DNA of 64,000 bases from an uncultured Flavobacteriales bacterium (GCA_937129365.1 CAKZNB010000049.1:133498-197497), one strand, 5' to 3'; positions 12,654 to 64,000 are shown, counted from the stretch's first letter. Program-made: numbers and translations. Notes: a model not told the origin generated them from the sequence alone.

Positions 12654-12654
12654 A

Positions 12655-13407: not shown

Positions 13408-13474
13408 TTCTTGTTTATTTTACGCTCCTAAGTTACTAAAGTTAAAATTATGAAAACAAAAAGTTAGATTACTA

Positions 13475-16282: not shown

Positions 16283-16283
16283 A

Positions 16284-17213: not shown

Positions 17214-17214
17214 T

Positions 17215-17970: not shown

Positions 17971-17974
17971 TTTT

Positions 17975-18871: not shown

Positions 18872-18877
18872 AAATTA

Positions 18878-19612: not shown

Positions 19613-19802
19613 TCTAAGTTGTTTTGTCTGTACTATTCAATTATTGTACCAAATTACTAAAATACTTTGTGATGGCTTGTTTACCTCTTTCAATTTTATA
19701 CACAAATAGTCATAGTTTTTCAATTTCATCAGTCAAAAAGACATTTTAAAAACAAAATTAATGACAAAACGTCTTGTTTTCAGTGTTTTATCCATTTGGT
19801 TT

Positions 19803-19810
19803 TAGTTTTG
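19803..19810 (+). promoter_or_regulatory. Candidate Bacteroidota -7 box (TAGTTTTG = TAnnTTTG) upstream of clpB
   Basis: Exact match to the TAnnTTTG consensus 35 nt upstream of the clpB ATG. No well-spaced -33 TTTG was seen. Confidence 0.3.
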
Positions 19811-19844
19811 ATGCTTATAGATTGAATTCAAAAAAAGATATAAA

Positions 19845-22430: not shown

Positions 22431-22466
22431 ATCATTTGTGTAATTAAAAGATAAAGGAATTGAATC

Positions 22467-22512
22467 AAAACAGAAAGCCGAACAATGAATTCATTGTTCG
22501 GCTTTCTGTTTT
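22467..22512. terminator. Bidirectional intrinsic terminator between convergent clpB and the fasciclin gene
   Basis: Perfect 23-bp palindrome AAAACAGAAAGCCGAACAATGAA/TTCATTGTTCGGCTTTCTGTTTT, flanked by an A-run and a T-run. Confidence 0.85.
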
Positions 22513-22570
22513 GGATTTATTCTTTAATAATCAATTTTGGATTATTAAATGTAAATGATATGTCCAATTA

Positions 22571-29934: not shown

Positions 29935-29936
29935 AA

Positions 29937-30056
29937 TGATAAGAAAATCTATTTTTCTTTACAAAGATAGTTCTTTTGATAAGAAATATTAATTTTCTTT
30001 ACATATAAAATATATGTGATAAGATTTTAAGTTAATCTTTACATTCAATTTTTCTA
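29937..30056. repeat. Three exactly phased 40-bp direct repeats (iteron/operator-like) abutting the Fic start codon
   Basis: Units are 29937-76, 29977-30016 and 30017-56. Each is TGAT-AAGAxx-N7-xxTCTT-TACA on the + strand. The inner 6-N7-6 inverted repeat is kept by paired changes in unit 3 (AAGATT/AATCTT versus AAGAAA/TTTCTT). Confidence 0.8.
29962..29969 (-). promoter_or_regulatory. Candidate -7 box TATCTTTG (TAnnTTTG) for the Fic gene, inside repeat unit 1
   Basis: Exact consensus match on the minus strand about 28 nt upstream of the Fic ATG. Confidence 0.35.
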
Positions 30057-30075
30057 GGGTGCTTCCGTATTTTAG

Positions 30076-30272
30076 CTAACGTCTCGGCTATGATTAGTAC
30101 GGGAATTAAAAGTAGTGAACTTTCGATTAAGCACTTAGCCAAAACTTTTTATTTTGTTTTAATTTTTTCATTTTAAAAGCCAAATCAAAAGATTTGGCGG
30201 ACATTATAAAAACACACTAAACTTTGGATTAAACACTAAAACCCGTATTAATTATAGCCATTGTTGTGTGTA
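30076..30272. repeat. attC-like structured palindrome, element B (~195 bp)
   Basis: + strand CTAAC(30076-80)...GTTGTGTGTA(30263-72). Same stem architecture as element A but with different stem sequences. Same core hairpin GCCAAATC-N4-GATTTGGC followed by GGAC. Confidence 0.6.
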
Positions 30273-30276
30273 GTAC

Positions 30277-31695
30277 TTAGTCTTTACCTTTAATTATTCT
30301 AACATCATCTTGATAGTTATATCTAATAGCACCTTTTTCCAGTTTCATACCTTGGTTTCCAGTTATATCATCTGTAATTGGCCCAACATTATGCAACATA
30401 AAATCGAGATGATTGTATCTTTCGTTTGCAACAAGATTTGAGAAATTTATTTCATCAGAATAAAATCTTTGATTAGAACTTGTCTTTATCTCAATAACAC
30501 CAAAGGTATCTAAACTTGTGTTTTTGAATTCATAATCGTGTTCCCAAAAATAAGTTCCACCTTTTTCCATATGAAGTTTTCCACCTGATTTGCCATCCTT
30601 TCTTTTTGGAAAGCAGATAAATTTTGTTCCTACTTTCTGAGTTTGATTTGGTTTAATACACAAAGGGAATTCTGTATCTGCGTAAAGACTTTCTATCGGA
30701 AAGAAAAATACTAATTGCTTTGAAGTTAGTACTTCTATACTTTCTATATAAACATTCTGCTTACCATCATTAATAATGCTGATTTCGATTATAGGTTCAG
30801 TTATTTTTTGTTTTTTTCTATTCAGTAGTAAATCAATTTTCTTAGGTTCTTTAAACCAATGAAATTTATTTTTGTGTTCAAAGATTTGATGTCTTAAAAT
30901 AATTTTGTCTTTATTATTTATGGGTATCTTTTCTGAGTTTTCCTCTACATTAATAAAAATCTCCTGTGTTACAGTTAAACCGTTATGGTCTTTGAACTCC
31001 TTAAGATAATTAGAAAAAGGTGGTAATTCTGGACTTAATGTATTCAACATAGCAGACAACAACATCGCAATCTCGAAATTATTTTCTTGTGAAATAGATT
31101 CATAATAAAATGAAGATTTTGCTAATTGTCTTGATTCTTGAAAGGCATAATTACGTTTTGTATGACTCCAGTATCCTTTTCCAATGACAAGTAAGACATC
31201 AATAGCTGGATGAGTATGAAATTCCGAATCATATTTTTTTATACGTTCTATTTCATTCTCTTTTGTCATATCGGATGCATAGGCAAAAAGAACTCTAATC
31301 GGTCTTTTTTGACCTTTGGAATCAAACTTTTTAAGAAGGTTAAATTTCTTAATAGTACTTTTTATTTCCGTTGCGTTTATTGTTGATTTTACTTCAAAAG
31401 CGTAGCGACAACTTTCAATGGGAAAAACTCCAACATTTGAGCTTAACATAGCTTTAGGAAGTGAATCCTCGTTATATATAATTAAATCTGTTTCTGCTGA
31501 TAAACTTCCATTGCCATCGGCAATTTTTCCATTTCCTATATTCCATTTGCGAGGAAGGTATTTTAAGAAAAAGTCACTTAGATGTTCTTCTTTAACTTTT
31601 CCTTTAAGCCCATCGTGTTCTATTGAAGAACCTAAATTAGCAGATTCTACTAAAGTATTTATGTTGTTCAATAAGACTTTTAATACAGGTGTCAT
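30277..31695 (-). CDS. Hypothetical protein with N-terminal PD-(D/E)xK nuclease-like domain (DUF6602-like) and unknown C-terminal domain
   Basis: 472 aa. D70 (ETDLIIY) ... E101-V-K103 (AFEVKS) spacing typical of the restriction-endonuclease fold. The C-terminal ~240 aa have no motif I recognise. Confidence 0.6.
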   Translation of the reverse strand: MTPVLKVLLNNINTLVESANLGSSIEHDGLKGKVKEEHLSDFFLKYLPRKWNIGNGKIADGNGSLSAETDLIIYNEDSLPKAMLSSNVGVFPIESCRYAFEVKSTINATEIKSTIKKFNLLKKFDSKGQKRPIRVLFAYASDMTKENEIERIKKYDSEFHTHPAIDVLLVIGKGYWSHTKRNYAFQESRQLAKSSFYYESISQENNFEIAMLLSAMLNTLSPELPPFSNYLKEFKDHNGLTVTQEIFINVEENSEKIPINNKDKIILRHQIFEHKNKFHWFKEPKKIDLLLNRKKQKITEPIIEISIINDGKQNVYIESIEVLTSKQLVFFFPIESLYADTEFPLCIKPNQTQKVGTKFICFPKRKDGKSGGKLHMEKGGTYFWEHDYEFKNTSLDTFGVIEIKTSSNQRFYSDEINFSNLVANERYNHLDFMLHNVGPITDDITGNQGMKLEKGAIRYNYQDDVRIIKGKD

Positions 31696-41249: not shown

Positions 41250-42674
41250 ATGCAATTTATGCAGAAATCAATTACTTTTTTTCAGGCTCTTATTCCCGTT
41301 TTGGTTTTAATGTCTTTGCTTGCTTTCAATATTTTTGTCAAAAAAGGAGAATGGTTAGGAGATTACTCCAATCAGTATATTTTGCTTTTTTCTGGTTTTG
41401 TAGCTTTTGTTATTGGATTGATTTACAAAGTTCGTTTGCGAAAAATATGGGCAGAAGTTTACGAAAATCTCAAGAGTGTTTTTATCCCAATTATTATCTT
41501 GGCATTGGTAGGAGCATTAACTGGAGCTTGGCTTATTAGTGGAATTATCCCAGCAATGGTGTACTATGGATTAAACATTTTGAGTCCAGAAATTTTTCTT
41601 CCAGCATCAGTCATTATTTCGGCAATTTTATCGCTTGCAACAGGAAGTTCTTGGACTACCACAGCCACAGTTGGTATTGCATTAATTGGAATAGGAACTG
41701 CTATGGGTATTTCAGCAGGAATGATTGCAGGAGCAGTAATTTCTGGAGCTTATTTTGGGGATAAATTATCTCCATTGAGTGACACCACAAACCTTGCACC
41801 CGCAATGGCTGGAACAGATTTGTATACTCATATAAAATATATGACTTATACTACAGTGCCAAGCATTGTAGTTACACTTATTGTGTTTTCAATTTTGAGT
41901 TTTACAATAGAAACAAAAGGAGATGCAGATATTGATTCTATATTGAATTCTATTGGTAGTTATTTTACTATTACTCCTTGGTTATTTATGGTTCCTAGTG
42001 TGGTTGTATTGTTAATTTTATTAAAAGTAAAACCAATTTTAGCTCTATTTTCTGGAGTTGCATTAGCTATGGTTTTTGCTTATTTTTTTCAACCTCAAAT
42101 GATAACTAATAATTTAGAGAGTGAAGGTTGGTTAGGTTTTTTAGGAGAAACATTATTTCTTGAAAATAGCATTGAAACTAAAAGTGATTTGTTGAATGAA
42201 TTGTTTGTTTCTAAGGGAGTTGTTGGGATGATTTCTACGATCCTGTTGATTTTATCTGCCATGATTTTTGGAGGAATAATGGATGGAGTAGGAGCTTTAT
42301 CCAAAATTACTGAAGTATTATTAAAAGGAGCTAAAACAGTATTTGGATTATTTACAAGTACCGTGTTAAGTTGCTTGGGATTAAATGCAATCGCATCCGA
42401 TCAATATTTGGCAATTGTAATTCCTGGACGTATGTACCGAAAAGCTTATGCGGATAGAGGCCTAGCCCCAGAAAATTTGAGTAGAACATTGGAAGATTCT
42501 GGAACTGTAACCTCAGTGCTTATTCCTTGGAATACCTGTGGAGCTTACCAATCGAGTGTACTTGGGGTAGGAGTTGCAGAATATTTTTTCTTTGCAATTT
42601 TTAATTGGATAAGCCCAATTGTAACGCTTGTTTTTGCCTATTTTATTATAAAAATTAGAAAATTGGTAACTTAA
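41250..42674 (+). CDS. nhaC: Na+/H+ antiporter NhaC family
   Basis: The track ORF starts at TTG 41238. The first ATG is 41250 and the next is 41259. About 12 TM helices with NhaC-type motifs (GSSWTTTATVGIAL, SPLSDTTN). Confidence 0.88.
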   Translation: MQFMQKSITFFQALIPVLVLMSLLAFNIFVKKGEWLGDYSNQYILLFSGFVAFVIGLIYKVRLRKIWAEVYENLKSVFIPIIILALVGALTGAWLISGIIPAMVYYGLNILSPEIFLPASVIISAILSLATGSSWTTTATVGIALIGIGTAMGISAGMIAGAVISGAYFGDKLSPLSDTTNLAPAMAGTDLYTHIKYMTYTTVPSIVVTLIVFSILSFTIETKGDADIDSILNSIGSYFTITPWLFMVPSVVVLLILLKVKPILALFSGVALAMVFAYFFQPQMITNNLESEGWLGFLGETLFLENSIETKSDLLNELFVSKGVVGMISTILLILSAMIFGGIMDGVGALSKITEVLLKGAKTVFGLFTSTVLSCLGLNAIASDQYLAIVIPGRMYRKAYADRGLAPENLSRTLEDSGTVTSVLIPWNTCGAYQSSVLGVGVAEYFFFAIFNWISPIVTLVFAYFIIKIRKLVT

Positions 42675-44230
42675 TCTACCAAATAAAAACTCTTAGCATT
42701 TCTTCCTTTTCCAATTCTTATCGCTTTATTAAAGTTGAAAAAATTATACTCTTCAAGTCCGCCATTTTCATATTCTGCCCAAATGTACTCATCAGAAGCT
42801 GAATACATAAAATACTCATAAGTAATCCCTTCCTTCTCAGCTATCTGCCCTTTTTTTATGGCTTCTCTTGCATGTTTGTATTCATTTTGAGTACAAGTTA
42901 GTTTTACTCCTTTGTTGTTTTCAAAAAGCAAGATAAATTCATAGTTATTATCTGCTCTATTTTTATAAGAATAAGCCCCAAATACAAAAGGTTGTCCATT
43001 TTTATAAGTAAAACGAAAACTCTCATATCCATTTTTCATTTCGTCAATAAGTGTGTCATCTTCATTGTATAAAAACATCACACCGTTTTTAATACAGTAA
43101 TTCCATTGGGCTAAAGTGTCTTTAAATTCAATGTTAGAGGTAGAGTAGGCTTTGCTTGCAGTAAAATAAAGCGATTCTTTTTTTAGCTTGTTTCCATTGA
43201 GCGATTGATAGTAGTTTGAATAAAATCCGCCAATAGAATTTTTGAATTTTACCATCTCCATAAATACAGAATTTGTAACCCATAATGTGTCTCCTTCTCT
43301 ATATAAATAGAAATTTGAAGCTATTGGATAATTAGTCAGAAATTTATCTTTTTCACCCTTAAATTCCATTGTAGTAAAATTGATTTTAGCAGGATTAAAT
43401 TCTTGATATTGAACATACGCAGTGTCATATTTTAGCTGAATTTTTCCATACACTTTGTGAGTATAATTAGATACTAAAGGAAAAGAAGCGTCAAAAGTAG
43501 AATGAGAAAATAAGGTGTAAAAGTCTCCTTTTTGTTGCAAAAATAAATGTCCAAATGGAGATGAATTTTTATTTAATAAATTTATCTGTCTACCATTTCT
43601 AGAAAATTTTCCCACAAAGTAATTATAAGAAATAGCTGATTTATATTCAGCTATTCTAGATTTTAATTCTTCATTTAATTGCTCCCTTCGCTCTTTATTT
43701 CTAATGTTTTTATAAATTGAATCGATCATCAAAATACTATCTGTAAACAATAAATCTCGCTGAGATTGCAGAAAGGATTGTGAATAAATTACCGAATCAA
43801 ACCCATAAAAAAAAGCATACGAATTATTATCAAAAACTCCCTGTGGAGTATTGTTGAAGCGTACCATGTTATTGTCTTCGTTTAAAAAACGATAAAAACA
43901 AGTATCCGAATAATCCTCGTTAGTAATAACAAAACTAGTATCAGTTATAAGCTCATAATCGCACTCAATTGTTTTTGAGTTTTGATCCGAATTAAGAAAA
44001 ATCTTTAGGTTTTTTAATTCCTCTTTTTCATAGCTGAAAGTTACTCTGCACTCAGAATCTGATTCAAAAAAAATAGTACCACATTCTCTTGTTCTTAAAT
44101 CAAATAATGAAAGTGTTTTTCCAATTATTTTTTTGTTTTGTTTTCTAACTTTTATGGTGCCATTTGTGAGTTGAGTATTTCCTAAAAACACAACAAGAAT
44201 AAAAAATATTGAAAATAAATATCTAACCAT
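42671..44230 (-). CDS. Hypothetical secreted protein (last gene of the ECF-sigma operon)
   Basis: 519 aa. Signal peptide followed by GTIKVRKQNKK. No recognisable domain. 3-nt gap to the upstream gene. Confidence 0.6.
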   Translation of the reverse strand: MVRYLFSIFFILVVFLGNTQLTNGTIKVRKQNKKIIGKTLSLFDLRTRECGTIFFESDSECRVTFSYEKEELKNLKIFLNSDQNSKTIECDYELITDTSFVITNEDYSDTCFYRFLNEDNNMVRFNNTPQGVFDNNSYAFFYGFDSVIYSQSFLQSQRDLLFTDSILMIDSIYKNIRNKERREQLNEELKSRIAEYKSAISYNYFVGKFSRNGRQINLLNKNSSPFGHLFLQQKGDFYTLFSHSTFDASFPLVSNYTHKVYGKIQLKYDTAYVQYQEFNPAKINFTTMEFKGEKDKFLTNYPIASNFYLYREGDTLWVTNSVFMEMVKFKNSIGGFYSNYYQSLNGNKLKKESLYFTASKAYSTSNIEFKDTLAQWNYCIKNGVMFLYNEDDTLIDEMKNGYESFRFTYKNGQPFVFGAYSYKNRADNNYEFILLFENNKGVKLTCTQNEYKHAREAIKKGQIAEKEGITYEYFMYSASDEYIWAEYENGGLEEYNFFNFNKAIRIGKGRNAKSFYLVD

Positions 44231-44233
44231 TAG

Positions 44234-45220
44234 TTATTTGACTATTGGGTATTGATAGTACTCGTCTAGTGAACTTGTCCATAATCTTTTGGAATAGCCA
44301 ACTTGTTTTCGGGAATAAAAAGTATAGTTTTTTCTATTGTCTCTAAACTTTATTTTATTCATTTTACGAGCTATTTTTCCTGTATGGATTTCTCCAGCAG
44401 GCGAATTTAATACAAATAATGAGTCTTTTTTTATCTCAAAACCAACATAATACCTATCTCTGGAATTTTGAATTAATATTGCTTTTCTGCACAATTGACT
44501 CTCAAAGTTGAGATACAAATTATAACGATTTCCATCAATTTTTGACCCTAATTTATAATGCCCAAAGGGTCTAGAAGTTTTATAGTTTCTTTCTAATTGT
44601 GCTACTAAGCTCGTAAATAGGCAATATTTGTAGTTTTTTGAACTTGCGCAGAAAAATTGATTTTGCCTTAAATTAACTAAGGTAATAGTATCATATTCAG
44701 AAACATACTCATAAGTTTTATAAAAATAACTAAAAGTACCTGTGTCACTGTTGATTATAACAGATTCATCAAGTGTTATTTGTCCAGTTTCTCGGTTTCT
44801 AATCTGAAAATGGGTATTAGTAATTGTATCAATTCTGTAACTGTTGGTTACATCAAGAAAAGCATATTTTACCTGATACACTGATAGTTTATTGTTTTTT
44901 ATTTTTCTGTTTATTTTCTTCCAAAAATCTTCAGGTCTTTTTTTAGCAAGCCGTTTGTTTCTTTTGTTTATTCCCGAAGAAAATATGTACAAAGAATCAT
45001 TATTAAAAAATACATTGTTGTACCAATATCCATTTTTTCTCTCGCTAAATTGAGGCAGAATACTGTCTACAAATCTGGTTTCAACAAAGCTAGAATCCCA
45101 GGTTTTGGTGGTGTAAAAACTAGTATCATATTGTACCTTTCGCACTCGCAGTATATTCCCTTCCTGTGCACTTGCACAGAAGGAAATAAGGAACAATATG
45201 ATACATAGTTTTGTTTTCAA
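44234..45220 (-). CDS. Hypothetical secreted protein (ECF-sigma operon)
   Basis: 328 aa. Signal peptide followed by GNILRVRKVQYD, similar to the start of the downstream protein. Confidence 0.6.
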   Translation of the reverse strand: MKTKLCIILFLISFCASAQEGNILRVRKVQYDTSFYTTKTWDSSFVETRFVDSILPQFSERKNGYWYNNVFFNNDSLYIFSSGINKRNKRLAKKRPEDFWKKINRKIKNNKLSVYQVKYAFLDVTNSYRIDTITNTHFQIRNRETGQITLDESVIINSDTGTFSYFYKTYEYVSEYDTITLVNLRQNQFFCASSKNYKYCLFTSLVAQLERNYKTSRPFGHYKLGSKIDGNRYNLYLNFESQLCRKAILIQNSRDRYYVGFEIKKDSLFVLNSPAGEIHTGKIARKMNKIKFRDNRKNYTFYSRKQVGYSKRLWTSSLDEYYQYPIVK

Positions 45221-45226
45221 CTTGTG

Positions 45227-46936
45227 TTATGATTTAAGTAATTTTTTTATTTCTGAAGTAGTTTTGTCTTTCACATCAAACACTATCATTCTGAAAGTGT
45301 GTGATTTACTTCTTTTGTCAATGTTTTTGAACTCACTTGGTTTAGCAACAGCAATCATGCCATTTTCTGTGACTCCCCAAAGAGCATTTTTTCTTCTTGG
45401 GTTAAAGGGCATTCTCGCCATTCTAGCAAAATCTAATGGGTAACAAGCGTTGGTTGATTTTTCGATTAAATCTAGCTTAGAAAAACTCAATTCCTCGCCA
45501 GTAGTTTCGTCTACATAATTTGCGTTTACCATCATTCCACTTGGTGGTTTTACGGGGTAATCTGCATTCCAAGTTCCAAATTTCCTGATTTTAAATACGC
45601 GTTGCATTTCTGCTGTACTTGTCTGTTGCACTGTCATGTTTCTTTTCATGGCTTGCAGAGTTCTTTCTCTAGCTTCTTGTTGTTTAGCATATTTTTCTTT
45701 AAGCTTCGCCAATTTCTTTTCTTCTACTTTTTGGGCAGCCACTTTATCCTTCAATTTGGTTTCATATTCTCCAAATTTCTGTTTAAATTTTTTAATTGCC
45801 ACTTCATAATCTTCGCCTTCTAACACAGGAGTTACGGCAATTTCTTCTTTTCTATCATCCTTTATTAATTGAATGATGTAATCTCCTTTTTTCTCTTTCA
45901 GTTTAATGTCATTCCATGTAACTTGGTAGGTGTCATCAGGTAAATCTTGGTTGCCAGTTACTTCAAAAATAGTTCCTGAATACACTACTAACTCTGGATA
46001 TTCCCCGTCAATTACATCAATTTTAAAATTCTTTTTTTCCTTGTTTGCTTTTTTGGGTTTACGAGGTTTAGTTTCTTTAATTGTTGTTACTTCCTTTTTA
46101 ATTACCTCAATTTTTTCTTCTACAAGTTCAATTTCAGATGGAGTTTCATCAATTGGATATTTGGTATCTACAATTCTTATCTCAACAGAGTTTGTGTCTG
46201 CAATTGCAATTTCAGGTTTTATTTCTTTTGTTACAGAAATAGAATCCTTCCCTTCATAATCCCATTTTCTTTTTTCTTCATCCAAATAATAGATGTTGAA
46301 TTTTGGGTCAGGATTTTTGGTGTGCATACAAATCACAAAGTTTTTTTCAGGAGTAATTTTCAGTCTTTTTCCATTCTGAAAACCTCTAATCTCCATCATG
46401 CCAGCCGATTCAAAAATATGTTTCTCGCCAAGTGTGTCATAATCCATAGGAATTCCACTTAAAAATATATCTGCTTGATCATGAAACTCTCGGTATTGTA
46501 CTTCTACTTCTCCCTCCACAATATTTCCTTCTTCATCCATAAAAGCACCTTTAGGTATGGTAATTTCTGTTCCGGTGTGGTGTTTTATTTTTCCACCCTT
46601 ATCAGCATTCACAAAATAGGATTCTTTCTTAATATCCAATTCAGGAATTGGTGGATTTACAAAAGGTTTTTCTTCAGTAGAATCAACTTGCTCAACAACG
46701 GTTAAAGTTTCTTGTGCTTCAGTAGTAGCTGTGTTTTCTTGTGTTCCAACATAAATTCCAGTAGCAATAGCTATAGCAGCTATTCCACCAACAAACCAGC
46801 TCATTTTACTGCCGTTTGGCTTGGGAGAAGTTGCACCTGCACCTCCAACTTTGCTCATCAAAGACCCAAAGTCTTTAGTCGCATTTATTTCATCACTGGC
46901 AAGTGGTTTTCTGTCAATATTTACTTTTCTTTTCAT
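45227..46936 (-). CDS. Single-pass membrane protein, putative anti-sigma factor/sensor
   Basis: 569 aa. Short cytoplasmic N-terminus, one TM (WFVGGIAAIAIATGIYVG), large external domain with a K/E-rich coiled coil. Lies 28 nt downstream of the ECF sigma gene. Confidence 0.5.
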   Translation of the reverse strand: MKRKVNIDRKPLASDEINATKDFGSLMSKVGGAGATSPKPNGSKMSWFVGGIAAIAIATGIYVGTQENTATTEAQETLTVVEQVDSTEEKPFVNPPIPELDIKKESYFVNADKGGKIKHHTGTEITIPKGAFMDEEGNIVEGEVEVQYREFHDQADIFLSGIPMDYDTLGEKHIFESAGMMEIRGFQNGKRLKITPEKNFVICMHTKNPDPKFNIYYLDEEKRKWDYEGKDSISVTKEIKPEIAIADTNSVEIRIVDTKYPIDETPSEIELVEEKIEVIKKEVTTIKETKPRKPKKANKEKKNFKIDVIDGEYPELVVYSGTIFEVTGNQDLPDDTYQVTWNDIKLKEKKGDYIIQLIKDDRKEEIAVTPVLEGEDYEVAIKKFKQKFGEYETKLKDKVAAQKVEEKKLAKLKEKYAKQQEARERTLQAMKRNMTVQQTSTAEMQRVFKIRKFGTWNADYPVKPPSGMMVNANYVDETTGEELSFSKLDLIEKSTNACYPLDFARMARMPFNPRRKNALWGVTENGMIAVAKPSEFKNIDKRSKSHTFRMIVFDVKDKTTSEIKKLLKS

Positions 46937-46964
46937 TTTATTATTGGTGTTTACTTTGTGTATT

Positions 46965-47534
46965 CTAGTTATTTAATTTTTGCATTTTTTTGATTACTCT
47001 GTGCGTTTTTACTTTTGCATTATTCTCAGTCAACTCAAGGATTTCTGCAATTTCTTTAAAACTTCTTTGTTCAAAAAATCTCATTTCGATCAGTTCTATT
47101 TCATTGTCTTCAAGCTCACTTAGTGCATTTATTAAGTCCTGATTTCCAATAGAAACTGGCACATCAATTTCTTCCGAAAGCTGTTCCAAATATTCGGTTT
47201 GCACATTTAGAGTAGGGGACTTAGATTGATTTTTAAGAAACTGATACGTTTCACTTTTGGCAATTCGGTACAACCATGAGCTAAATTTGAATCCCATAAA
47301 TTTGTACTTTTTGATGTTAGTCATAGCTTTTATAAAAACCTGCGAAGTAACATCTGCCGCATCTTCTTTGCTATCCATTCGTTGGTAGGCATACCTAAAA
47401 ATAGCTTCGTAATGTTTGTCGTATAGTTTCTCAAAGGCTTTTAAATCCTTTTGAGCAGCTTTTATCCAAGAGTCTTCCAGAGAATCTGTCTTGGTTTGTT
47501 GCGTTATAGGTTGGGTAATACTCATTGAATTCAT
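46965..47534 (-). CDS. ECF-type RNA polymerase sigma-70 factor
   Basis: 189 aa. Region 2 (FEKLYDKHYEAIFRYAY..DVTSQVFIKA) and region 4 HTH (SFKEIAEILELTENNAKVKTHR). Confidence 0.9.
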   Translation of the reverse strand: MNSMSITQPITQQTKTDSLEDSWIKAAQKDLKAFEKLYDKHYEAIFRYAYQRMDSKEDAADVTSQVFIKAMTNIKKYKFMGFKFSSWLYRIAKSETYQFLKNQSKSPTLNVQTEYLEQLSEEIDVPVSIGNQDLINALSELEDNEIELIEMRFFEQRSFKEIAEILELTENNAKVKTHRVIKKMQKLNN

Positions 47535-55940: not shown

Positions 55941-58900
55941 ATGAAGCAGTTACTATTTTTTTTATTCCTTTCTCTTTCCATTTTGGGATTTTCTCAAAAC
56001 AATAAAGTCTATAATTTTATCGAAAATAATGGACAGTGGAATAAGAATGTTCAGTATAAAGCAGAATTAAACGGAGGTTATTTATATTTAGAAAACAACC
56101 AATTGACCTATGATTTTTATGATGAAGATGGGTTGGAAAAATACTTTCATGCTCATCATCACAAAGAACCTAGAAAAGAATTGGATAGGCTTGATTGTCA
56201 TTCTTATAAAGTAGAATTTATTGGGGGTAATTCAACTCAAATAATTCCAAGAAAAAAGCAAAAAACTTATTACAACTATTTTTTAGGTTCCGATAAAACC
56301 AAATGGGCGAGTAGAGTTGGTAGTTATGAAGTGATTAATTATCAGAATATGTATAACCAGATTGATTTGGTGTTTTATTCCGCTTCAAAATCCCTCAAGT
56401 ATGATTTTAATGTAAAACCTCAAGGAAATCCTTCACAGATTAAATTTAAGTATAAAGGAGTTAATTCTATTGACTTGTCAAAGGGAAGGTTGATTATCAA
56501 AACCTCTGTAAATAAAGTAATTGAAGATAAACCGTATGCTTACCAAACCATAAATGGAGTGATAACTAAAGTGGAATGTAACTATACGTTGAAGAATGGT
56601 GTGGTAGGCTTTGAATTTCCAAACGGCTACAACAAAAATCTTGATTTAGTAATTGACCCAACTTTAATATTTTCTACTTTCTCAGGTTCAACTTCAAATA
56701 ACTTTGGATACACAGCAACTTTCGATAGAGATGGATTTTTGTATTCTGGGTCCACAGCTTTTGGCGGTACTTATCCTACAACCACAGGAGCTTATGATAG
56801 ATCATTTAATGGAGGAATTGTAGATGTGGCGATTTCAAAATATGACACTACTGGAATGACGATGGTTTATTCCACTTTTGTAGGTGGTTCAAGTGATGAA
56901 TTGCCTCATAGTATGATTACTAATTCCAACGATGAATTGTTTGTTTACGGGACCACTAGTTCTCTTGACTTTCCATACACGACTGGGTGTTATGATTCAA
57001 TTTTTAACGGAGGAACAGCTCTTAATTTAACTTCAGGATTGGGGGTTAACTTTATTAATGGTTCAGATATTTTTGTTATTCGTTTAAGTCAGCCTGGCGA
57101 TAGTTTAATGGGAGGAACTTTGGTAGGAGGAAGTGGAAATGATGGCTTAAACTCTTCATCTACAAACGATTTACGATATAACTATGCAGATGAAGTTCGA
57201 GGAGAAATCGAAATTGATAAGAACAACAATATTTATGTAGTTTCTTGCACTCGATCTTTGAATTTTCCAGTTTCTGGTTCAGCATTTCAGCGAATGCATG
57301 GAGGTTCTGATTTGGATGGAGTGGTTTTCAAGATGGATAATAAACTAACTACCATGATTTGGTCTTCCTATTTAGGAGGAAATGGAGATGATGCAGCTTA
57401 TTCGCTTGCTCTTGATAAAAATGACAATGCGTATGTGGCTGGAGGGACCAATTCGAGTGATTTTATAAAATCACCAGATGCAATTGATACCACCTACAAC
57501 GGTGTAAGGTGTGATGGTTTTATTACCAAAATAAATACAACGGGCTCTGTTGTTCTTCGGTCAACTTATTACGGTACAGATTTATATGATCAAATTTATT
57601 TTATAGAATTAGATAGGAAAGACAGTGTGTATGTATTTGGTCAAACCGATAAAATGGATTCTTCTTTTATAAAAAATGCTGCTTACTTTACTTTTAATAG
57701 CGGACAATTTATTACCAAAATGTCTTCAGATTTAGACACAATCGAGTGGTCAACGGTGTTTGGTTCTGGAGGTGGAGGACCTAATATTTCGCCCACAGCT
57801 TTTTTGGTGGATGTATGTAATAAAATCTATTTATCAGGTTGGGGAGGAACTACCAATCAATTTGGAACTACTAACAATGCTATTGCAACAACTGGTATGG
57901 ATACTACAGCAGGAGCTTTTCAAACAACTACTGATGGAAGTGATTTTTATCTTATGGTTCTTGAAAGTGATGCCTCTAATATTGTATATGGTTCTTATTT
58001 TGGAGGAAATGTAAGTGCAGAACATGTAGATGGCGGAACGAGTAGATTTGATAGAAATGGTAGAATGTATCAATCAGTATGTGCAGGATGTGGATTTAAT
58101 TCTGATTTTCCTATAAAACCTTCTCCCGGAGCAGTTTCAGCAACTAATGGGAGTAGCTGTAATAATGGAGTTTTTAAATTTGATTTCAACCTACCGATTA
58201 CTCTTGCCGATTTTGATGTGACTCCTTTTTTATGCAAAGGAGACACTACTTTTATTATTAATAGAAGTGTAAGAGGTACCTCTTTTCTTTGGAATTTTGG
58301 AGATGGAAATTTTTCTACTGCTGTCACCCCGTTTCATGTATATACCAATGCGGGAACCTACACTATAACTTTGGCAGTAGCTGATACAACTGCTTGTAAT
58401 TTTTCTGATACCATACGAAAGCAAGTAACAATTTTATCAGATTCTTCTTGGACATTGACTAATGATACGATTTGTGATAGTAGTTTCAAACAAATTGGGT
58501 TTCTTCCCTCATCAGATCCTTTAATTACTTATATTTGGTCACCCTCAACTGGATTAAGTGATACAACTATTTCAAATCCTGTTGCTTCGCCTGCCAACAC
58601 TACAACCTACACGTTGTTAGTTTCAAATGGAATTTGTACTGATACTCTTCAACTAACTGTTGTTGTGACCAAACTGAGGTTGTATGTTCCAACTGATACT
58701 ACACTTTGTGTTGCAGGAACTCCTATCAGTATAACAGCCAATGCTTTTGGTAGTACAAATTATTTTCAATGGTCATCTAATCCAAATTTTACTGACACTA
58801 TTAACAGTACAATTTTGAATCCAACACTAACTGTTTCACCAACTTCTTCTCAAGTGTATTATATTAGAATAGGTAACAATGGTTGCTATTTAGAAGATAG

Positions 58901-59687
58901 TGTAAGGGTTTCGGTGTTTGCTACTTCATTAACTATTCTTGGTCCTACGGGAATTTGTTTGGGAGATACTATTGTTTTATCTGTGGTAAATTCTACTGGC
59001 GATACTTTGACTTACGATTGGAACCCAAATCCCGAAATTATTTCAGGAGATTTTACTGATTCTATCCTTACGAGTCCCAATGCTACAACAGTTTATTCAG
59101 TTACAGCAACAAATTCTCAAGGATGCGTTGTTACGCTTACTCATAGAGTGTATGTGTCACCATTACCCACATTACCAATATTTGCTAATGCTGATAAAGA
59201 CACCATTTTTGCTGGAGAAACAGTCCAATTAAGTGTACTTCCAAATGGCTTTTCATATTTATGGTCTCCAGGAGGGACTTTAAGTAGTACAACTGCCCAA
59301 AACCCTACCGCAAATCCTACAAGCACAACAACTTACGGAGTTAGAGTAAGCGATAGCGGGTGTGTTAGAACTTCTGATGTAACTATTGTTGTGATTGATG
59401 TAATTTGCGGACCTCCAGATTTATATGTGCCAAATGCATTTACTCCAAATGGAGATGGTGATAATGATGTGCTTTATGTTCGTGGAAATAACATTACAGA
59501 TATGACTTTGAGAATATATCACCGTTGGGGAGAAAAAGTGTTTGAATCTACTAATCAATCCAAAGGTTGGGATGGAACTTACAAAGGCAAAGAATGTGAC
59601 CCAGCAGTATTTGTGTATTACCTTGATGTTACTTGTAGAGGTGGTGAAACCTATCAAGAGAAAGGAAATATTACTTTGATTAGATAG
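55941..59687 (+). CDS. Giant T9SS substrate: SBBP beta-propeller repeats, PKD domain, Ig-like repeats, C-terminal type-B (CHU_C/gliding-motility-associated) sorting domain
   Basis: 1248 aa. Signal peptide, repeated ..FGG..D.A..I..D..GN.Y..G.T.S.DFP.. units, PKD (FLWNFGDGNFS). C-terminus LYVPNAFTPNGDGDNDVLYV...GWDGTYKGK...VYYL. Confidence 0.88.
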   Translation: MKQLLFFLFLSLSILGFSQNNKVYNFIENNGQWNKNVQYKAELNGGYLYLENNQLTYDFYDEDGLEKYFHAHHHKEPRKELDRLDCHSYKVEFIGGNSTQIIPRKKQKTYYNYFLGSDKTKWASRVGSYEVINYQNMYNQIDLVFYSASKSLKYDFNVKPQGNPSQIKFKYKGVNSIDLSKGRLIIKTSVNKVIEDKPYAYQTINGVITKVECNYTLKNGVVGFEFPNGYNKNLDLVIDPTLIFSTFSGSTSNNFGYTATFDRDGFLYSGSTAFGGTYPTTTGAYDRSFNGGIVDVAISKYDTTGMTMVYSTFVGGSSDELPHSMITNSNDELFVYGTTSSLDFPYTTGCYDSIFNGGTALNLTSGLGVNFINGSDIFVIRLSQPGDSLMGGTLVGGSGNDGLNSSSTNDLRYNYADEVRGEIEIDKNNNIYVVSCTRSLNFPVSGSAFQRMHGGSDLDGVVFKMDNKLTTMIWSSYLGGNGDDAAYSLALDKNDNAYVAGGTNSSDFIKSPDAIDTTYNGVRCDGFITKINTTGSVVLRSTYYGTDLYDQIYFIELDRKDSVYVFGQTDKMDSSFIKNAAYFTFNSGQFITKMSSDLDTIEWSTVFGSGGGGPNISPTAFLVDVCNKIYLSGWGGTTNQFGTTNNAIATTGMDTTAGAFQTTTDGSDFYLMVLESDASNIVYGSYFGGNVSAEHVDGGTSRFDRNGRMYQSVCAGCGFNSDFPIKPSPGAVSATNGSSCNNGVFKFDFNLPITLADFDVTPFLCKGDTTFIINRSVRGTSFLWNFGDGNFSTAVTPFHVYTNAGTYTITLAVADTTACNFSDTIRKQVTILSDSSWTLTNDTICDSSFKQIGFLPSSDPLITYIWSPSTGLSDTTISNPVASPANTTTYTLLVSNGICTDTLQLTVVVTKLRLYVPTDTTLCVAGTPISITANAFGSTNYFQWSSNPNFTDTINSTILNPTLTVSPTSSQVYYIRIGNNGCYLEDSVRVSVFATSLTILGPTGICLGDTIVLSVVNSTGDTLTYDWNPNPEIISGDFTDSILTSPNATTVYSVTATNSQGCVVTLTHRVYVSPLPTLPIFANADKDTIFAGETVQLSVLPNGFSYLWSPGGTLSSTTAQNPTANPTSTTTYGVRVSDSGCVRTSDVTIVVIDVICGPPDLYVPNAFTPNGDGDNDVLYVRGNNITDMTLRIYHRWGEKVFESTNQSKGWDGTYKGKECDPAVFVYYLDVTCRGGETYQEKGNITLIR

Positions 59688-59824
59688 CTAAATCATCCTT
59701 TTGGGTGATATATTGAATAGCTTTTTTATAATAACTTTGAGTTTATTAAATATAGTTAATTGGCAACCATAAGTAATTGACAATGGTTATATTTACAACT
59801 TACAACAACAGTTTTTAATTTCCA

Positions 59825-62800
59825 TTGAAAAAAACTATTAAGCATATAATTTTTCTGTTATTTGGAATTCTTTTGTTTTTTAATAACAATAGTTTTTCAA
59901 CCCATTTAATGGGTTCAACACTTTCTTATTCATGTATTGGGCCAAATCAATACACTGTAACTTTTAAAGCTTATAGAGATTGTGGAGGAATAGCAATGCC
60001 GTCTTCATTTTTAATCTCATACAGTGGTTGCGGAAACACTGGTAGTTTAACTGCAACACAAATAAGTAGTGCTGATATTACACCAGTTTGCCCAAGCAAA
60101 TCTAGTAATTGTGGCGGAGGAACTGGACCAATAGGAGTAGAAGAATACATTTTTCAAGGAACAGTAACTGTTCCTGCTGGTTGTTCAAATATTTTATTTT
60201 CTGTTTCATCTTGTTGCCGAAATGGAAGTGTCACAAATATTACAAGTCCAAGTACAAATGGGTTTTACACAAGCTCATTACTTAACAACACTATTAGTCC
60301 TTGCAATAGTTCTCCAATATTTGCCTCAGCACCAACACTTTTTGCCTGTGTTAATCAACCAGTTTCTTTTCAACAATTAGCAACCGACCCTGATGGAGAT
60401 GTTTTGGTATATTCTCTGACCAACTGTAGGCAAACTACAGGAACTAGTGTAACTTATGGGGGCGGTTTTAGTGGAGCCTCTCCATTAACAACTCCTGTAA
60501 CTATAAATCCAAGTACAGGAGATTTATCTTTCACACCTAATTCGATTCAAATCGCAACAGTTTGTGTACTTGTAGAAGAATTTAGAGGTGCGGTTAAAAT
60601 AGGAGAAATAGTCCGAGATATGCAGATTGTAGTTCGAAACTGTTTCAACGCTTTACCTTCACTATCTGGAATAAATGGTGCATCTGGTGTCTATAGTACC
60701 AATATTTGTGAAGGAGCGCCACTTTGTTTTAATGTAAATGCTTCAGATACTAATTCTGCAGATAATCTAACAATGACTTTTTCTGGAATTATACCTGGGT
60801 CAACATTTACGCAATCTGGAACTGGTAATAATAAAACAGGAACTTTTTGTTGGACTCCACCAATAGGTTCTGTTGGTTCATATGTGTTTTCTGTTTTAGT
60901 TAATGATGATGCTTGTCCTATCATTGGGCAAAACTCAAAAACTTATACAGTTAATGTAGTTGCAAATTCCAATCCACCTATTGTTGCTAGTTCTGATGTA
61001 ACATTATGCGAAGGTAATTCTACAACACTTACAGCCACAAATGTAGCTCCAACAATAACCTGGTCGCCCTCATTGGGGCTCTCAACAACATCTGGAACTT
61101 CAACAACTGCAACTCCACTTTCAACTACAACTTATACAGCAACTGCAATTTATGCCGATGGTTGTCGATCCTCGGATGATGTAGTTTTAACTATTAATCA
61201 GGCTCCTACCACATTAATTACTCCCACATCTGCTAATGTCTGCCCAGGAGGTAATTTTACATTAACAGGCACAACAAATAGTACTGGAATGAGTTTCAGC
61301 TGGACTAGGTTAAACCCTTTTGCTATAGGGTTAGGGAGTGGAACAGTTTCTGGAACTTCTTCTACAATAGTTGTAACTGTCCCAACTACTCCTGGCACAT
61401 ATAATTTTAGATTAAGAGTCACAAATCCTATCTCAGGCTGTGTTTCTGAAGTTACCGTTCCACTAACAGTAGGTTCCGCTCCTCCATTAGGTAGTTGTGT
61501 CAATATATATGTTTCTCCTTCAGGATCATCTTCAGCAGCTGGTTCACAAGCAAACCCCACAAATTTGCCTGAAGCTCTTACTAGGAGTGCTTGTCAAAAT
61601 GCAGTTATAAAAATGGCTATGGGAACTTATAATTTCAGTAACCCTATCAATATTCCAAGCTTTGTAACTATTGAAGGAGGATTTAATCCTACTACTTGGG
61701 TAAAAACGAGTCAAGCTGGTGCCACTACAATAAATAGAAATACATTAAACCCTGAAGGAGTAACTAACGCTCGGAGGCTAGTTATGTTTTATGGGAATAG
61801 TGTTTCTGGATTTAGATTTCAAGACATTACAATAACTACCTCTGCTGCAAATCAAAGTGGCATGTCCACTTACGGAGTGCATTTAACATCTTGCTCTAAT
61901 TATGATTTTGTAAGAACGCAAATATTACCAGGAAATGCTTCTGCTGGTCAAGCAGGAGGAACTGGCCCAACAGGTGGATTTTCTGGTGGTACCGGACAAC
62001 ATGGGTCCAACTTCTCTACTTCTACTTCGGCTCAGGTAAATGGTGGAGCAGGAGGAGCTGGATGTAATAGTTCGGGCTCAGGAGGGAATGTATGTACCGC
62101 TCCAGGAATAAACAGGGGTTGTAATGGTTTTTCAGGGGGAGGGTCAGCCCTTTATTGGCGAGGAAGTGGTGGTGGTGGTGGTGGTGGTGGTGGTAACGAA
62201 GATAGAGATGGAGGAAGAGGAGGTTATGGAGGATCAATTGCTGCTGGAGGTGGGTTTGCAGGTAGGTCTCAAAATAATCAACCAGGTCCTGGACCAGGAT
62301 GTAGAAGTTTTGGAAACTGGTTTGGGAATGAAACCGGATGCATAAGTTCTGTATCATCAACTAGCACTGAATCTGGAAGATGTGGTAGAACTGGTATAAA
62401 TGGACAAAATGGGACTATAGGAGTTCTTGGTAGTGTAGGTACTTATGGAGTATTTTATACACCAGGTGGACAAGGTGGACAAGGAGGAAGAGGTCAAGGT
62501 GGTCAAGGCGGGTCAGGAGGAGGAGGAGGTGCAGGAGCTGATGGGTTTTTATGTGCTGATGGTACAGGTGCAGGAGGAGGAGGAGGAGGAGGAGGAGGCT
62601 GTGGAGGATATGGTGGTCTTGGTGGTCGTGGTGGTGGTGGTAGTTTTGGATTGTATTTAGTTTCTAATGGGACAAACGGGATCGTTTCACAAAGTTATAT
62701 TAATGCAGGAACAGCAGGTGCTGGTGGAAATGGAGGAACTGGTAGAATAGGTACAAATGGAGGCCTTGGAGGGAACGGAGGAAATGGAGGTACAAGTGGA

Positions 62801-64000
62801 GGTTATGGAGGAGATGGAGGAAGAGGAGGAAATGGAGGAAGAGGGGGGAATGGGGGGAATGGAAGAGCTGGTGTTTCAATTGATGTTTATAGGGTAAGTG
62901 GATCTTTATTAACAACTCAGGTTACTACTTTTAATCTTGCTGGTCAATCTACTATCAATGTTTCTAATGTTAATTGTACCCAGACTAATGTAAATTACTC
63001 AACAGCCTCTCCAAATTCATGGGACTTTGATAGGGTTACTAATTTTGCAACACCAGCAACATCTGGAGCAACAACCTCTGCAAATACACAATATTCTCAA
63101 ATAGCTAGGTATACAGTTTCTAGTGGTGCTGATATTTATGAAGGCTTTCATAATATTTCTTTTACTGGTTCGGTTGCTCCAGAAATATCAACAAGTGCAG
63201 ATTCTATAGGTGTTGATACATTTCAACTTTGTCAAGGAGATTATGCAACTTTTGCAAGTGTTTCTTCTGGATTAACTTATATCTGGAATTTTAATGGGGC
63301 AATTGCAAATCCTGGATCTGGAATTCAAGTAGTTCCTTCCACACAATTTAATACTCCAGGATTTTATACCATCACACTAAGAACAACAAACGATTGTTGT
63401 GGGCTTTCTCCTACCAAAACAATTTATCTTTATGTAGATGTATTACCAACTGTATTTGCATCTGGAGCTGGATCTATTTGTGAAGGGGATAATAGAACTT
63501 TAAGTTTATTTGGTTTAACTGCTAGTGATAGTGTTGTTTGGTCTCCCATTACAAGTATTGTTTCTTCAACATCAACATCAACATCAAAAACTATTACGGT
63601 TAGTCCGTCAACAACTACAACCTATACTGCATCTATTTATACAAAAATAACTACAAATGGCGTAACAAGATTAAGTTGCCCTATTAGTCGACCTCTTACA
63701 ATAACAGTGAGTCCTAATCCTATTCTTAGCATGTCATCAACACAAGTTATTTGTAATAATGATGGTACTTCAACAGCAACTATAAGTTCAGGAGGAGGTT
63801 TATATAATTTTGTATGGTCAAATGGAGGCACCACATTTAATACAACTACATCAACCATTACAGGTTTAGGTGTAGGAAAATATGTTGTAACTGCGACAAA
63901 TACTATTACAGGTTGCTCTGTTACAGATTCTGTTGATGTTCTTCCCTCAGCTTTAGCTCCTACTATAGTTCTTCAAAGTTCTACACCTGCAACTTGTGGT
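59825..64000 (+). CDS. Giant cell-surface adhesin-like protein, 3' end beyond window (at least 1392 codons); not in the supplied ORF track
   Basis: Frame 2 is open from the stop at 59816-18 to the window end. TTG start gives signal peptide LKKTIKHIIFLLFGILLFFNNNSFS. N-terminal HLMGSTLSY..YTVTFKAYRDCGG motif typical of Bacteroidota type-B-sorted giants. Ig-like repeats, beta-helix-like YVSPSGS..GTYNF, glycine-rich tract. Confidence 0.85.
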   Translation, partial: MKKTIKHIIFLLFGILLFFNNNSFSTHLMGSTLSYSCIGPNQYTVTFKAYRDCGGIAMPSSFLISYSGCGNTGSLTATQISSADITPVCPSKSSNCGGGTGPIGVEEYIFQGTVTVPAGCSNILFSVSSCCRNGSVTNITSPSTNGFYTSSLLNNTISPCNSSPIFASAPTLFACVNQPVSFQQLATDPDGDVLVYSLTNCRQTTGTSVTYGGGFSGASPLTTPVTINPSTGDLSFTPNSIQIATVCVLVEEFRGAVKIGEIVRDMQIVVRNCFNALPSLSGINGASGVYSTNICEGAPLCFNVNASDTNSADNLTMTFSGIIPGSTFTQSGTGNNKTGTFCWTPPIGSVGSYVFSVLVNDDACPIIGQNSKTYTVNVVANSNPPIVASSDVTLCEGNSTTLTATNVAPTITWSPSLGLSTTSGTSTTATPLSTTTYTATAIYADGCRSSDDVVLTINQAPTTLITPTSANVCPGGNFTLTGTTNSTGMSFSWTRLNPFAIGLGSGTVSGTSSTIVVTVPTTPGTYNFRLRVTNPISGCVSEVTVPLTVGSAPPLGSCVNIYVSPSGSSSAAGSQANPTNLPEALTRSACQNAVIKMAMGTYNFSNPINIPSFVTIEGGFNPTTWVKTSQAGATTINRNTLNPEGVTNARRLVMFYGNSVSGFRFQDITITTSAANQSGMSTYGVHLTSCSNYDFVRTQILPGNASAGQAGGTGPTGGFSGGTGQHGSNFSTSTSAQVNGGAGGAGCNSSGSGGNVCTAPGINRGCNGFSGGGSALYWRGSGGGGGGGGGNEDRDGGRGGYGGSIAAGGGFAGRSQNNQPGPGPGCRSFGNWFGNETGCISSVSSTSTESGRCGRTGINGQNGTIGVLGSVGTYGVFYTPGGQGGQGGRGQGGQGGSGGGGGAGADGFLCADGTGAGGGGGGGGGCGGYGGLGGRGGGGSFGLYLVSNGTNGIVSQSYINAGTAGAGGNGGTGRIGTNGGLGGNGGNGGTSGGYGGDGGRGGNGGRGGNGGNGRAGVSIDVYRVSGSLLTTQVTTFNLAGQSTINVSNVNCTQTNVNYSTASPNSWDFDRVTNFATPATSGATTSANTQYSQIARYTVSSGADIYEGFHNISFTGSVAPEISTSADSIGVDTFQLCQGDYATFASVSSGLTYIWNFNGAIANPGSGIQVVPSTQFNTPGFYTITLRTTNDCCGLSPTKTIYLYVDVLPTVFASGAGSICEGDNRTLSLFGLTASDSVVWSPITSIVSSTSTSTSKTITVSPSTTTTYTASIYTKITTNGVTRLSCPISRPLTITVSPNPILSMSSTQVICNNDGTSTATISSGGGLYNFVWSNGGTTFNTTTSTITGLGVGKYVVTATNTITGCSVTDSVDVLPSALAPTIVLQSSTPATCG
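62168..62191 (+). repeat. In-frame trinucleotide microsatellite (GGT)8 encoding Gly8
   Basis: Read directly; in frame with the 59825 ORF. Confidence 0.95.
62573..62596 (+). repeat. In-frame trinucleotide microsatellite (GGA)8 (plus GGC) encoding Gly9
   Basis: Read directly; in frame with the 59825 ORF. Confidence 0.95.

Follow-up and report, generated by a model that had tools for sequence, protein, structure and literature searches.

A giant surface-protein gene of a Flavobacteriales bacterium with a conserved beta-helix and glycine-rich module, probably encoding a secreted adhesin

Positions 59825-64000 of a 64,000-nucleotide stretch from an uncultured Flavobacteriales bacterium (GCA_937129365.1 CAKZNB010000049.1:133498-197497; the whole stretch is hereafter called the window) are the 5' 41% of a genuine gene, which encodes a protein of approximately 3,412 amino acids in a member of the Flavobacteriales (Bacteroidota). 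It is an ordinary gene for a giant surface protein of a type IX secretion system (T9SS), cut by the end of the window, and it belongs to a large known class. The role that we consider most probable for its product, with a probability of about 0.75, is that of a T9SS-secreted, surface-anchored, long filamentous adhesin. The only unusual part of this otherwise ordinary gene is a conserved and uncatalogued module, in which a beta-helix is followed by a glycine-rich region, and the novelty of the gene is modest. The coding region had been proposed from the nucleotide sequence alone (the sequence-only reading), and that interpretation is supported by the analysis described here.

Results

A giant open reading frame runs off the end of the window

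Frame 2 has a sole stop at the start of this region, the TAA at 59816-59818, which is followed by 1,394 sense codons up to base 64000 (translation of 59816-64000). Counted from the TTG at 59825, exactly 1,392 codons lead up to base 64000, with the first ATG at 59909. The sequence-only reading had described an open-ended open reading frame (ORF) of 1392 codons with a TTG start, and the position of the stop, the length, and the ATG at 59909 are all as it gave them; every motif that it quoted is also found in its place in the frame-2 translation. The local base composition leads to an expectation of 0.068 stops per codon and, with it, to a probability of zero stops in frame 2 of approximately 1e-42. 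Over the same region, the other five frames contain 52-119 stops versus 0 in frame 2. The GC content by codon position is 0.44 / 0.59 / 0.15 (GC3 of 0.15), in a window with a GC content of 32%.

The frame is missing from the ORF track that accompanied the window, because such lists omit frames that are still open where the sequence ends, and in this way they overlook a coding stretch of 4.2 kb. The ORFs that the track does show here (60691.., 61198.., 62022.., 62124.., 62445.., 62700.., and 63637..) had been called shadows of the real gene. All of them are present, and they translate to low-complexity strings of poly-H, poly-V, poly-E, or poly-L, because the GGN repeats of the gene are read out of frame.

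The gene continues on a second metagenome contig, L001 (ENA ERZ928167 k127_2142), which was found through the 1,248-residue protein encoded immediately upstream, itself carried on several public contigs. L001 differs from the window in 5 of 18,060 bases. On L001 the frame stays open for 3,287 codons from the TTG, and the public gene call spans 3,384 residues from the ATG at 59909, which gives a protein of approximately 3,412 residues when counted from the TTG. The sequence-only reading had proposed to follow the frame past the end of the window, and in this independent assembly it runs on uninterrupted. This continuation, together with an identity of 46-66% between the N-terminal half and its homologues, establishes the real coding region that had been claimed.

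All five differences between L001 and the window fall within 25 nt (62791-62815) of a GGN-repeat tract, where GGTSGGYGGDGG is changed to GGKRGGYGGEGG. They may reflect variation among strains, gene conversion between the repeats, or faulty assembly of the G-rich repeats.

The start codon and the signal peptide

The signal peptide was assigned from the composition of the leader and from its alignment to the leaders of homologues. Read from the TTG at 59825, the leader has a basic start (KK..K), a hydrophobic core (IIFLLFGILLFF), and a polar end (NNNSFS), with THLMGS..YRDCGG at residues 26-55 following it. In 20 aligned homologues, a signal peptide of 25-30 residues immediately precedes the conserved motif ASH.xG..Y.C.GPNQY.V.L..YRDC.G (ASHxxG), and the leader of the window protein aligns with the leaders of these 20 proteins. 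Given that the homologues carry their signal peptides right before this motif, TTG 59825 is the true start. No other in-frame start codon downstream of the stop at 59816 and ahead of the mature domain retains a complete leader. The methionine encoded by the ATG at 59909 sits within the ASH..YRDC.G motif, at a variable column, and is internal to the mature protein. A TTG start with a good signal peptide had been suggested by the sequence-only reading, and both hold in these alignments. The same is true for the start of the type H-x-x-G..YRDCGG, which it regarded as typical of giant surface proteins of Bacteroidota: the motif is common to hundreds of large Bacteroidota T9SS proteins.

The public gene call on L001 begins at 13969 (corresponding to 59909 in the window), which is 84 nt late and leaves the protein 28 codons short. 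Since this call starts from the ATG at 59909, its product is without the 25-residue signal peptide, and such a late start would get a secreted surface protein misclassified as cytoplasmic.

Homologues and the C-terminal sorting tail

The search for homologues gave 409 significant matches, all of them large proteins, with 46-66% identity over the N-terminal half. Most of those with recorded Pfam domains or names have a T9SS sorting tail, either Por_Secre_tail (type A) or CHU_C (type B), and SprB, Ig_7, or PKD domains. In the homologues P0001-P0020, a conserved head of approximately 1,400 residues is joined to differing stalks and to tails of type A or B. The tails are of type A in P0001-P0004, while P0005, P0008, and P0010 are among those with type B. 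Given that the closest head relatives are of type A and others of type B, it appears that this head has been combined with various stalks and tails.

The sequence of L001 as read ends 376 nt (125 codons) before the stop, and the type of the tail was deduced from a collinear relative. A genome scan gave two relatives, L002 (59% identical) and one from Salibacter halophilus (46% identical). L002, which belongs to the genome bin of an uncultured member of the Flavobacteriales, is a contig collinear with L001, with 59% identity over the last 510 readable residues, and it extends exactly 125 residues further, which is the number of residues lacking from the 3,384-residue call on L001. Its C-terminus matches CHU_C (PF13585, E 1e-13) and TIGR04131 (E 8e-11). 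It is therefore very probable, judging from this relative, that the giant protein also ends in a type B (CHU_C) sorting tail. This prediction is not automatic, because among the closest homologues of the N-terminal half tails of type A and of type B both occur. The JGI metagenome collection held no exact match to a 38-mer taken from the end of L001, and a protein scan of metagenome contigs for the tail returned only distant relatives, with at most 50% identity, that share the 50-residue repeats described below.

Domain organization of the part encoded in the window

The features of the gene within the window are the following:

59825..64000, + strand: coding sequence of the giant surface protein, first 1,392 codons of approximately 3,412 (open frame, GC by codon position, homologues, continuation on L001); runs off the window end
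59825..59899, + strand: predicted Sec signal peptide LKKTIKHIIFLLFGILLFFNNNSFS, residues 1-25 (leader composition; equivalent leaders in homologues)
59900..60979, + strand: cysteine-rich head, residues 26-385, with three tandem immunoglobulin (Ig)/cadherin-like beta-sandwiches (AlphaFold, Foldseek, Pfam)
60977..61456, + strand: Ig_7 (CHU_C-associated), residues 385-461 (PF19081, E 3.8e-4), and PKD, residues 472-544 (PF00801, E 1.9e-5)
61481..61939, + strand: right-handed parallel beta-helix, residues 553-705 (AlphaFold strands, Foldseek; DUF1565-like start IYVSPSG..NPTNL..A....C..VIKMA.GTY)
61940..62884, + strand: glycine-rich half of the module, residues 706-1020 (approximately 40% Gly, (GGX)n tracts, conserved Cys)
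62885..63262, + strand: conserved segment after the module, residues 1021-1146 (conserved alignment columns; FNLxGQ..I..NVNCT..WDFD...)
63263..64000, + strand: PKD_4-like domain, residues 1147-1200 (PF18911, E 2.7e-6), followed by Ig-like units and the beginning of the stalk of SprB repeats, residues 1201-1392 (C.G...L.A...Y.W at 1136 and 1219)

The AlphaFold model of the head is all-beta, with a predicted local distance difference test score (pLDDT) of 93.5 and a predicted template modelling score (pTM) of 0.87, and the HxxG..Y..YRDCGG motif belongs to the first of its three beta-sandwich domains. Foldseek matched the head to protocadherin EC1-4, KIT, titin, and Dscam at E values of approximately 1e-8. 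At the level of sequence, Big_9 was above the Pfam cut-off on domain 3, and Cadherin_4 and He_PIG were found below the threshold on domains 2-3; no Pfam model matched domain 1. Units of the type C.G...L.A...Y.WS begin near residues 393, 473, 1136, and 1219. The cysteine-containing Ig-like repeats that had been noticed in the translation thus correspond to the Pfam matches to Ig_7, PKD, and PKD_4, and to the three modelled beta-sandwiches. No NCBIfam family matched the part of the protein encoded in the window or the 3,287-residue protein.

The beta-helix and glycine-rich module

The module (residues 553-1040, approximately 490 residues) consists of a right-handed beta-helix and then a glycine-rich stretch of approximately 310 residues, with IYVSPSGSSSAAGSQANPTNL..GTYNF at residues 561-604. 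A beta-helix-like module had been suspected from these motifs, and structure prediction confirms it at the level of the fold. The AlphaFold model of residues 545-1049, obtained from 56 aligned homologues, has a pLDDT of 86.8 and a pTM of 0.79, and residues 553-705 form regular strands with a pLDDT of 95-98, which make only about six turns before the glycine-rich part. The beta-helix was matched by Foldseek to the PL9 rhamnogalacturonan lyase 5olq (E 1e-5), and the E values of the matches range from 1e-5 to 1e-3, with probabilities up to 1.0. Further matches are Pel9A (1ru4), GH136, GH82, CE8 pectin methylesterases, phage tailspikes, and the adhesin PfbA (4mr0), as well as DUF1565 and phage proteins of the pectate-lyase superfamily. 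The likeness to the carbohydrate-active enzymes (CAZymes) is at the fold level only, with 10-17% identity and a template modelling (TM) score normalised to the query of approximately 0.2 over about 170-260 aligned columns. No Pfam or NCBIfam family, enzyme families included, matched the beta-helix at E values up to 1.

Residues E617, K627, R638, D667, and R697 are invariant, or nearly so, in the alignments of homologues. Four of these (E617, R638, D667, and R697) follow one another at intervals of approximately one helix turn, and they lie within or next to predicted strands. The spaced charged residues are reminiscent of the acidic and basic ladders of pectate lyases, and they could form a binding groove or a catalytic ladder.

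The glycine-rich half contains 32 overlapping GGxGG matches and (GGX)n tracts of 7-9 triplets, encoded in the DNA by short GGN tandem repeats, and it is matched by no Pfam model. The alignment of homologues displays invariant glycines and conserved cysteines in this half, and in 19 homologues its length is 275-335 residues and its glycine content 37-44%. In the AlphaFold model, residues 855-1035 have a pLDDT above 90 over most of their length, yet they contain almost no helix or strand. Given that the length and the glycine content are conserved and that AlphaFold places this half confidently, it appears to be folded rather than a floppy linker. The candidate fold that we favour, judging from the model, is a bundle of helices of the polyglycine II (PGII) type. 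A global Fourier test of the glycine positions for period 3 was not above shuffled sequences; because the phase of the triplets shifts between tracts, only the local (G..)n runs are meaningful. Two other assignments of the glycine-rich region were rejected: for an RTX repeat, there is one GGxGxDxUx-type match in 350 residues, and for collagen, there are two Gly-Pro matches in 350 residues.

The module is not confined to giant proteins. A HMMER scan of 1.84 billion representative proteins found it in 639 clusters at E of at most 1e-3, and in 336 at E of at most 1e-10, with clusters counted at 50% identity. It lies either at residues ~540-1060, behind the same head, or directly after the signal peptide. 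Proteins of the latter kind have 650-920 residues, and all six that were sampled (P0121, P0129, P0133, P0134, P0145, and P0196) end in a type A T9SS sorting domain. Given that these stand-alone proteins run from signal peptide to module to type A tail, the module behaves as an autonomous unit of T9SS cargo. A segment like that of residues 1021-1146 follows the module in these small proteins too, and residues 1021-1146 have no Pfam match even at an E value of 10. No relevant description of such a glycine-rich beta-helix module in T9SS proteins emerged from a search of the literature. It is conceivable, as a tentative proposal, that the module represents an undescribed family of autonomous T9SS cargo domains, formed by a short beta-helix with a (GGX)n far end that may be a PGII bundle.

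The stalk beyond the window

The stalk that begins at the end of the window continues on L001. The full protein read from this contig matches the SprB repeats (PF13573, E 8e-25) in four stretches within 3,287 residues, including a final SprB repeat. Approximately 37 copies of a 50-residue repeat with two cysteines (..CDSL.SP.GK.W...G.Y.DT....GCDS..T.NLTVN..) occupy residues ~1560-3200 (L001 ~18500-23500), and this repeat has no Pfam or NCBIfam model. In the middle of its array there are seven FG-GAP_2 repeats (E 4e-98), at residues ~1780-2200 (L001 ~19200-20500). P0008 and the loci L004-L031, from marine and freshwater metagenomes, also contain units that resemble the 50-residue repeat. As a separate observation, the public record of the 3,384-residue product contains no Pfam matches, despite the FG-GAP_2 repeats at E 4e-98.

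Given that the module and the two-cysteine repeat are both without family models, defining the two would improve the annotation of hundreds of Bacteroidota surface proteins.

Genomic neighborhood of the gene

Two features precede the gene in the window:

55941..59687, + strand: T9SS type B substrate of 1,248 residues, 137 nt away (DUF7948, SBBP beta-propeller repeat, PKD, Ig_7, CHU_C at E 5e-18, and TIGR04131 at E 3e-14)
59688..59824, no strand: AT-rich intergenic spacer that separates the two genes for T9SS cargo

The upstream protein had been taken for a T9SS substrate, and it has both the signal peptide (MKQLLFFLFLSLSILGFSQ) and the CHU_C/TIGR04131 tail of one. The spacer contains no terminator-like hairpin, and its single sigma-70-like match scores lower than what shuffled sequence gives. 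On L001, the genes upstream are those for a MoxR ATPase, a rotamase, and the DUF7948 cargo protein. On L002, a dipeptidase gene lies immediately downstream of the relative of the giant gene, and no PorP/SprF-like gene is found there. A copy of this dipeptidase that is 88% identical (P0273, on L032, ENA ERZ928167 k127_390146, from the same sample as L001) adjoins MgtE and not a giant gene. Given that the dipeptidase neighbours MgtE on L032, the order of genes around the giant gene is not conserved among related Flavobacteriales.

Other regions of the window

Three other regions of the window were noted. Positions 1-19000 contain a cluster for the biosynthesis of surface polysaccharide, with genes for a hexapeptide transferase, a Polysacc_synt_2 dehydratase, a NeuB-type synthase of sialic or nonulosonic acid, a GT2 glycosyltransferase, an epimerase, and a DUF6044 protein. 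On the minus strand, at 28858-31695, genes for a protein of the Fic/DOC family (with domains Fic_N, Fic, and SoFic-like C) and for a DUF6602 protein lie 343 nt apart in the same orientation, and this pair may be a small island of toxin or defence type. Also on the minus strand, at 42671-47534, there are three consecutive ORFs of 519, 328, and 569 residues with no Pfam match at E of at most 1e-5. They lie directly downstream of a gene for a sigma-70 factor of the extracytoplasmic function type (46965-47534), and the region may be an uncharacterised sigma-regulated operon.

Discussion

Proposed function and alternative explanations

If the protein is a filamentous adhesin, the signal peptide initiated at the TTG would direct it to Sec export, and the T9SS would then take it across the outer membrane by means of the C-terminal type B (CHU_C) sorting domain. 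A PorP/SprF-like partner would retain it on the cell surface. The C-terminus would be at the membrane, and the stalk, made of SprB, Ig-like, and 50-residue repeats with the seven-blade FG-GAP propeller, would project the head. The distal, ligand-contacting end would be formed by the three Ig/cadherin-like domains, the Ig/PKD pair, and the beta-helix and glycine-rich module, while the propeller in the middle of the stalk may offer a second ligand site. In favour of this assignment are the folds of adhesin type (the three Ig/cadherin-like sandwiches, the beta-helix, and the seven FG-GAP_2 repeats), the homology to T9SS cargo, the type B substrate encoded immediately upstream, and the match of the family profile to the stem repeats and the sorting domain of GhpA, a solved protein of like plan. 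Giant T9SS adhesins govern the attachment of aquatic Flavobacteriales to particles, algae, and other cells. The gene described here, like a great many others of its kind, is a candidate for such an attachment factor.

Several observations weigh against this assignment. There is no ligand or binding activity on record for any member of the family. The type B tail is predicted from a relative, because the readable sequence stops 125 residues short of the C-terminus, and P0001-P0004, which are closest to the N-terminal half, end in tails of type A, indicating that the type of tail is not fixed in the family. A scan of 20 window ORFs revealed no PorP/SprF-like gene, nor is there one among the genes annotated over the 14 kb upstream. 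PorP-like proteins bind type B cargo and serve as its anchor (PMC9143113). Nonetheless, the lack of a nearby PorP/SprF gene is compatible with type B membership, given the documented cases of type B substrates whose shuttle is encoded at another site (PMC12618676). Finally, beta-helices are typical of enzymes that cleave glycans as well, and the module is the sole sizeable domain of small T9SS cargo proteins, which fits an enzyme at least as well as the tip of an adhesin.

These last two points lead to the alternative that survives best, although we consider it unlikely, namely that the protein is mainly the carrier of an enzyme. The module would be a polysaccharide lyase, hydrolase, or esterase that is displayed or released through the T9SS, and the Ig, SprB, and FG-GAP units would be spacers or aids to carbohydrate binding. 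This is in line with the fact that the best structural matches of the module are CAZyme beta-helices (PL9, Pel9A, GH136, GH82, and CE8), that five charged residues (E617, K627, R638, D667, and R697) are invariant or nearly so, with four of them about one helix turn apart, and that the module occurs alone in T9SS cargo of 650-920 residues, as is typical of secreted enzymes. However, the identity to these CAZymes is only 10-17%, with a query TM score of approximately 0.2, and no enzyme family of Pfam or NCBIfam matches even weakly. Moreover, the beta-helix has only about six turns before the glycine-rich part, and the same set of structural matches includes the non-enzymatic adhesin PfbA (4mr0), tailspikes, phage tail fibres, and DUF1565.

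Considerably less probable is a function like that of one of two well-described giant proteins, either a gliding adhesin of the SprB type that moves on helical tracks, or a multimeric grappling hook of the GhpA type for catching cells. The SprB repeats (PF13573, E 8e-25) and the probable type B tail are what would be expected in these cases, as is the match of the family profile to GhpA (E 8.8e-211), together with a layout that all of them share, from distal head through repeat stem to sorting domain. Nonetheless, the match to GhpA covers no more than the sorting domain and the generic Ig_7/PKD pair, which recurs about 40 times along GhpA, and a search with the single sequence did not return GhpA. 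In addition, the protein has about half the length of SprB (6,497 residues) or GhpA (5,898 residues), there are no sprC/D/F-like or PorP/PorE-like genes upstream, and the close homologues of the head bear quite different stalks and tails.

A frame without function, be it a chance ORF, a pseudogene remnant, or an assembly chimera, would be in line with its absence from the ORF track, with the lack of a precomputed Pfam match for the 3,384-residue product, and with the clustering of the five differences between assemblies in GGN repeats, but it is extremely improbable, given that the absence from the track is explained by lists that skip open-ended frames, that the probability of finding no stop is approximately 1e-42 and the bias by codon position is strong, that the domains are conserved one by one with hundreds of proteins and are modelled with confidence by AlphaFold, and that the same frame runs uninterrupted through an independent assembly.

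Concerning the module itself, a glycine-rich half that is a PGII assembly would make it a new structural class of bacterial domain, active in surface recognition or on glycans. It would also make it the cellular counterpart of the adhesin tips of phage gp38 and of the predicted PE_PGRS domains. A solved structure of the module might add an example of a rare glycine-based fold.

Comparison with known systems

The protein is most similar to the T9SS type B cargo (CHU_C/TIGR04131) of Flavobacteriia and Cytophagia, with which it shares the Sec signal peptide, the very large size, the SprB repeats, and the Ig_7 and PKD domains. The type B tail is found in the collinear relative L002, and the adjacent gene also encodes a type B substrate.

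With SprB of F. johnsoniae there is no orthology beyond generic repeats. The protein described here, with approximately 3,412 residues, is about half as long as SprB (6,497 residues), no operon of the sprC/D/F type is seen next to its gene, and neither the head with three Ig-like domains nor the beta-helix and glycine-rich module was found as a feature of SprB. SprB orthology was rejected on the basis of the four SprB-repeat stretches in 3,287 residues, the total length, and the absence upstream of the sprC-sprD-sprB-sprF context.

GhpA of Aureispira sp. CCB-QB1 (9flp) is the closest relative with a solved structure when the family profile is compared with the PDB (E 8.8e-211), while a search of the PDB with the single sequence gave only noise. 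There are approximately 40 matches of GhpA to the Ig_7/PKD pair (profile positions 353-566) and one to the sorting domain (1767-1848), and none to the head or to the module. GhpA (5,898 residues) and SprB are both built from a signal peptide, a distal N-terminal adhesin module, an Ig-like stem, and a T9SS sorting domain (bioRxiv 10.1101/2024.01.29.577165). The giant protein shares this overall body plan and the stem repeats of the Ig_7/PKD type. GhpA for its part has 52 Ig-like repeats, forms heptamers, and adjoins homologues of PorP/PorE. Orthology with GhpA was also rejected, given that the matches are confined to Ig_7/PKD and the sorting domain and that no PorP/PorE gene is seen upstream or among the 20 window ORFs.

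The seven consecutive FG-GAP_2 repeats correspond to the usual number of a closed propeller, as in the FG-GAP propellers of integrin alpha; unlike these, the propeller here belongs to a bacterial T9SS protein, whose repeat stalk it interrupts midway.

The beta-helix of the module shares with the pectate-lyase superfamily (PL9 5olq and 1ru4, CE8, GH136, tailspikes, and DUF1565) the fold of residues 553-705 and the cap motif YVSPxG...P..T...A......I.....GTY. It differs in being short and in running into a glycine-rich region of approximately 310 residues that none of those proteins has.

Of the glycine-rich half, no PGII protein was found among the matches of the module obtained with Foldseek or with the sequence profile. 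Nonetheless, its (GGX)n or Gly-X-X tracts resemble those reported for the PGII structures of the snow-flea antifreeze protein, of the gp38 tips of S16- and T4-type phages, and of the predicted PE_PGRS domains (PMC10216338, PMC12032242). The likeness extends to tracts that are modelled with confidence and without helix or strand, and to their position at that end of a surface or adhesin protein which is exposed. What sets the module apart from these PGII structures is the fusion of its tracts to a beta-helix, along with the conserved cysteines within them.

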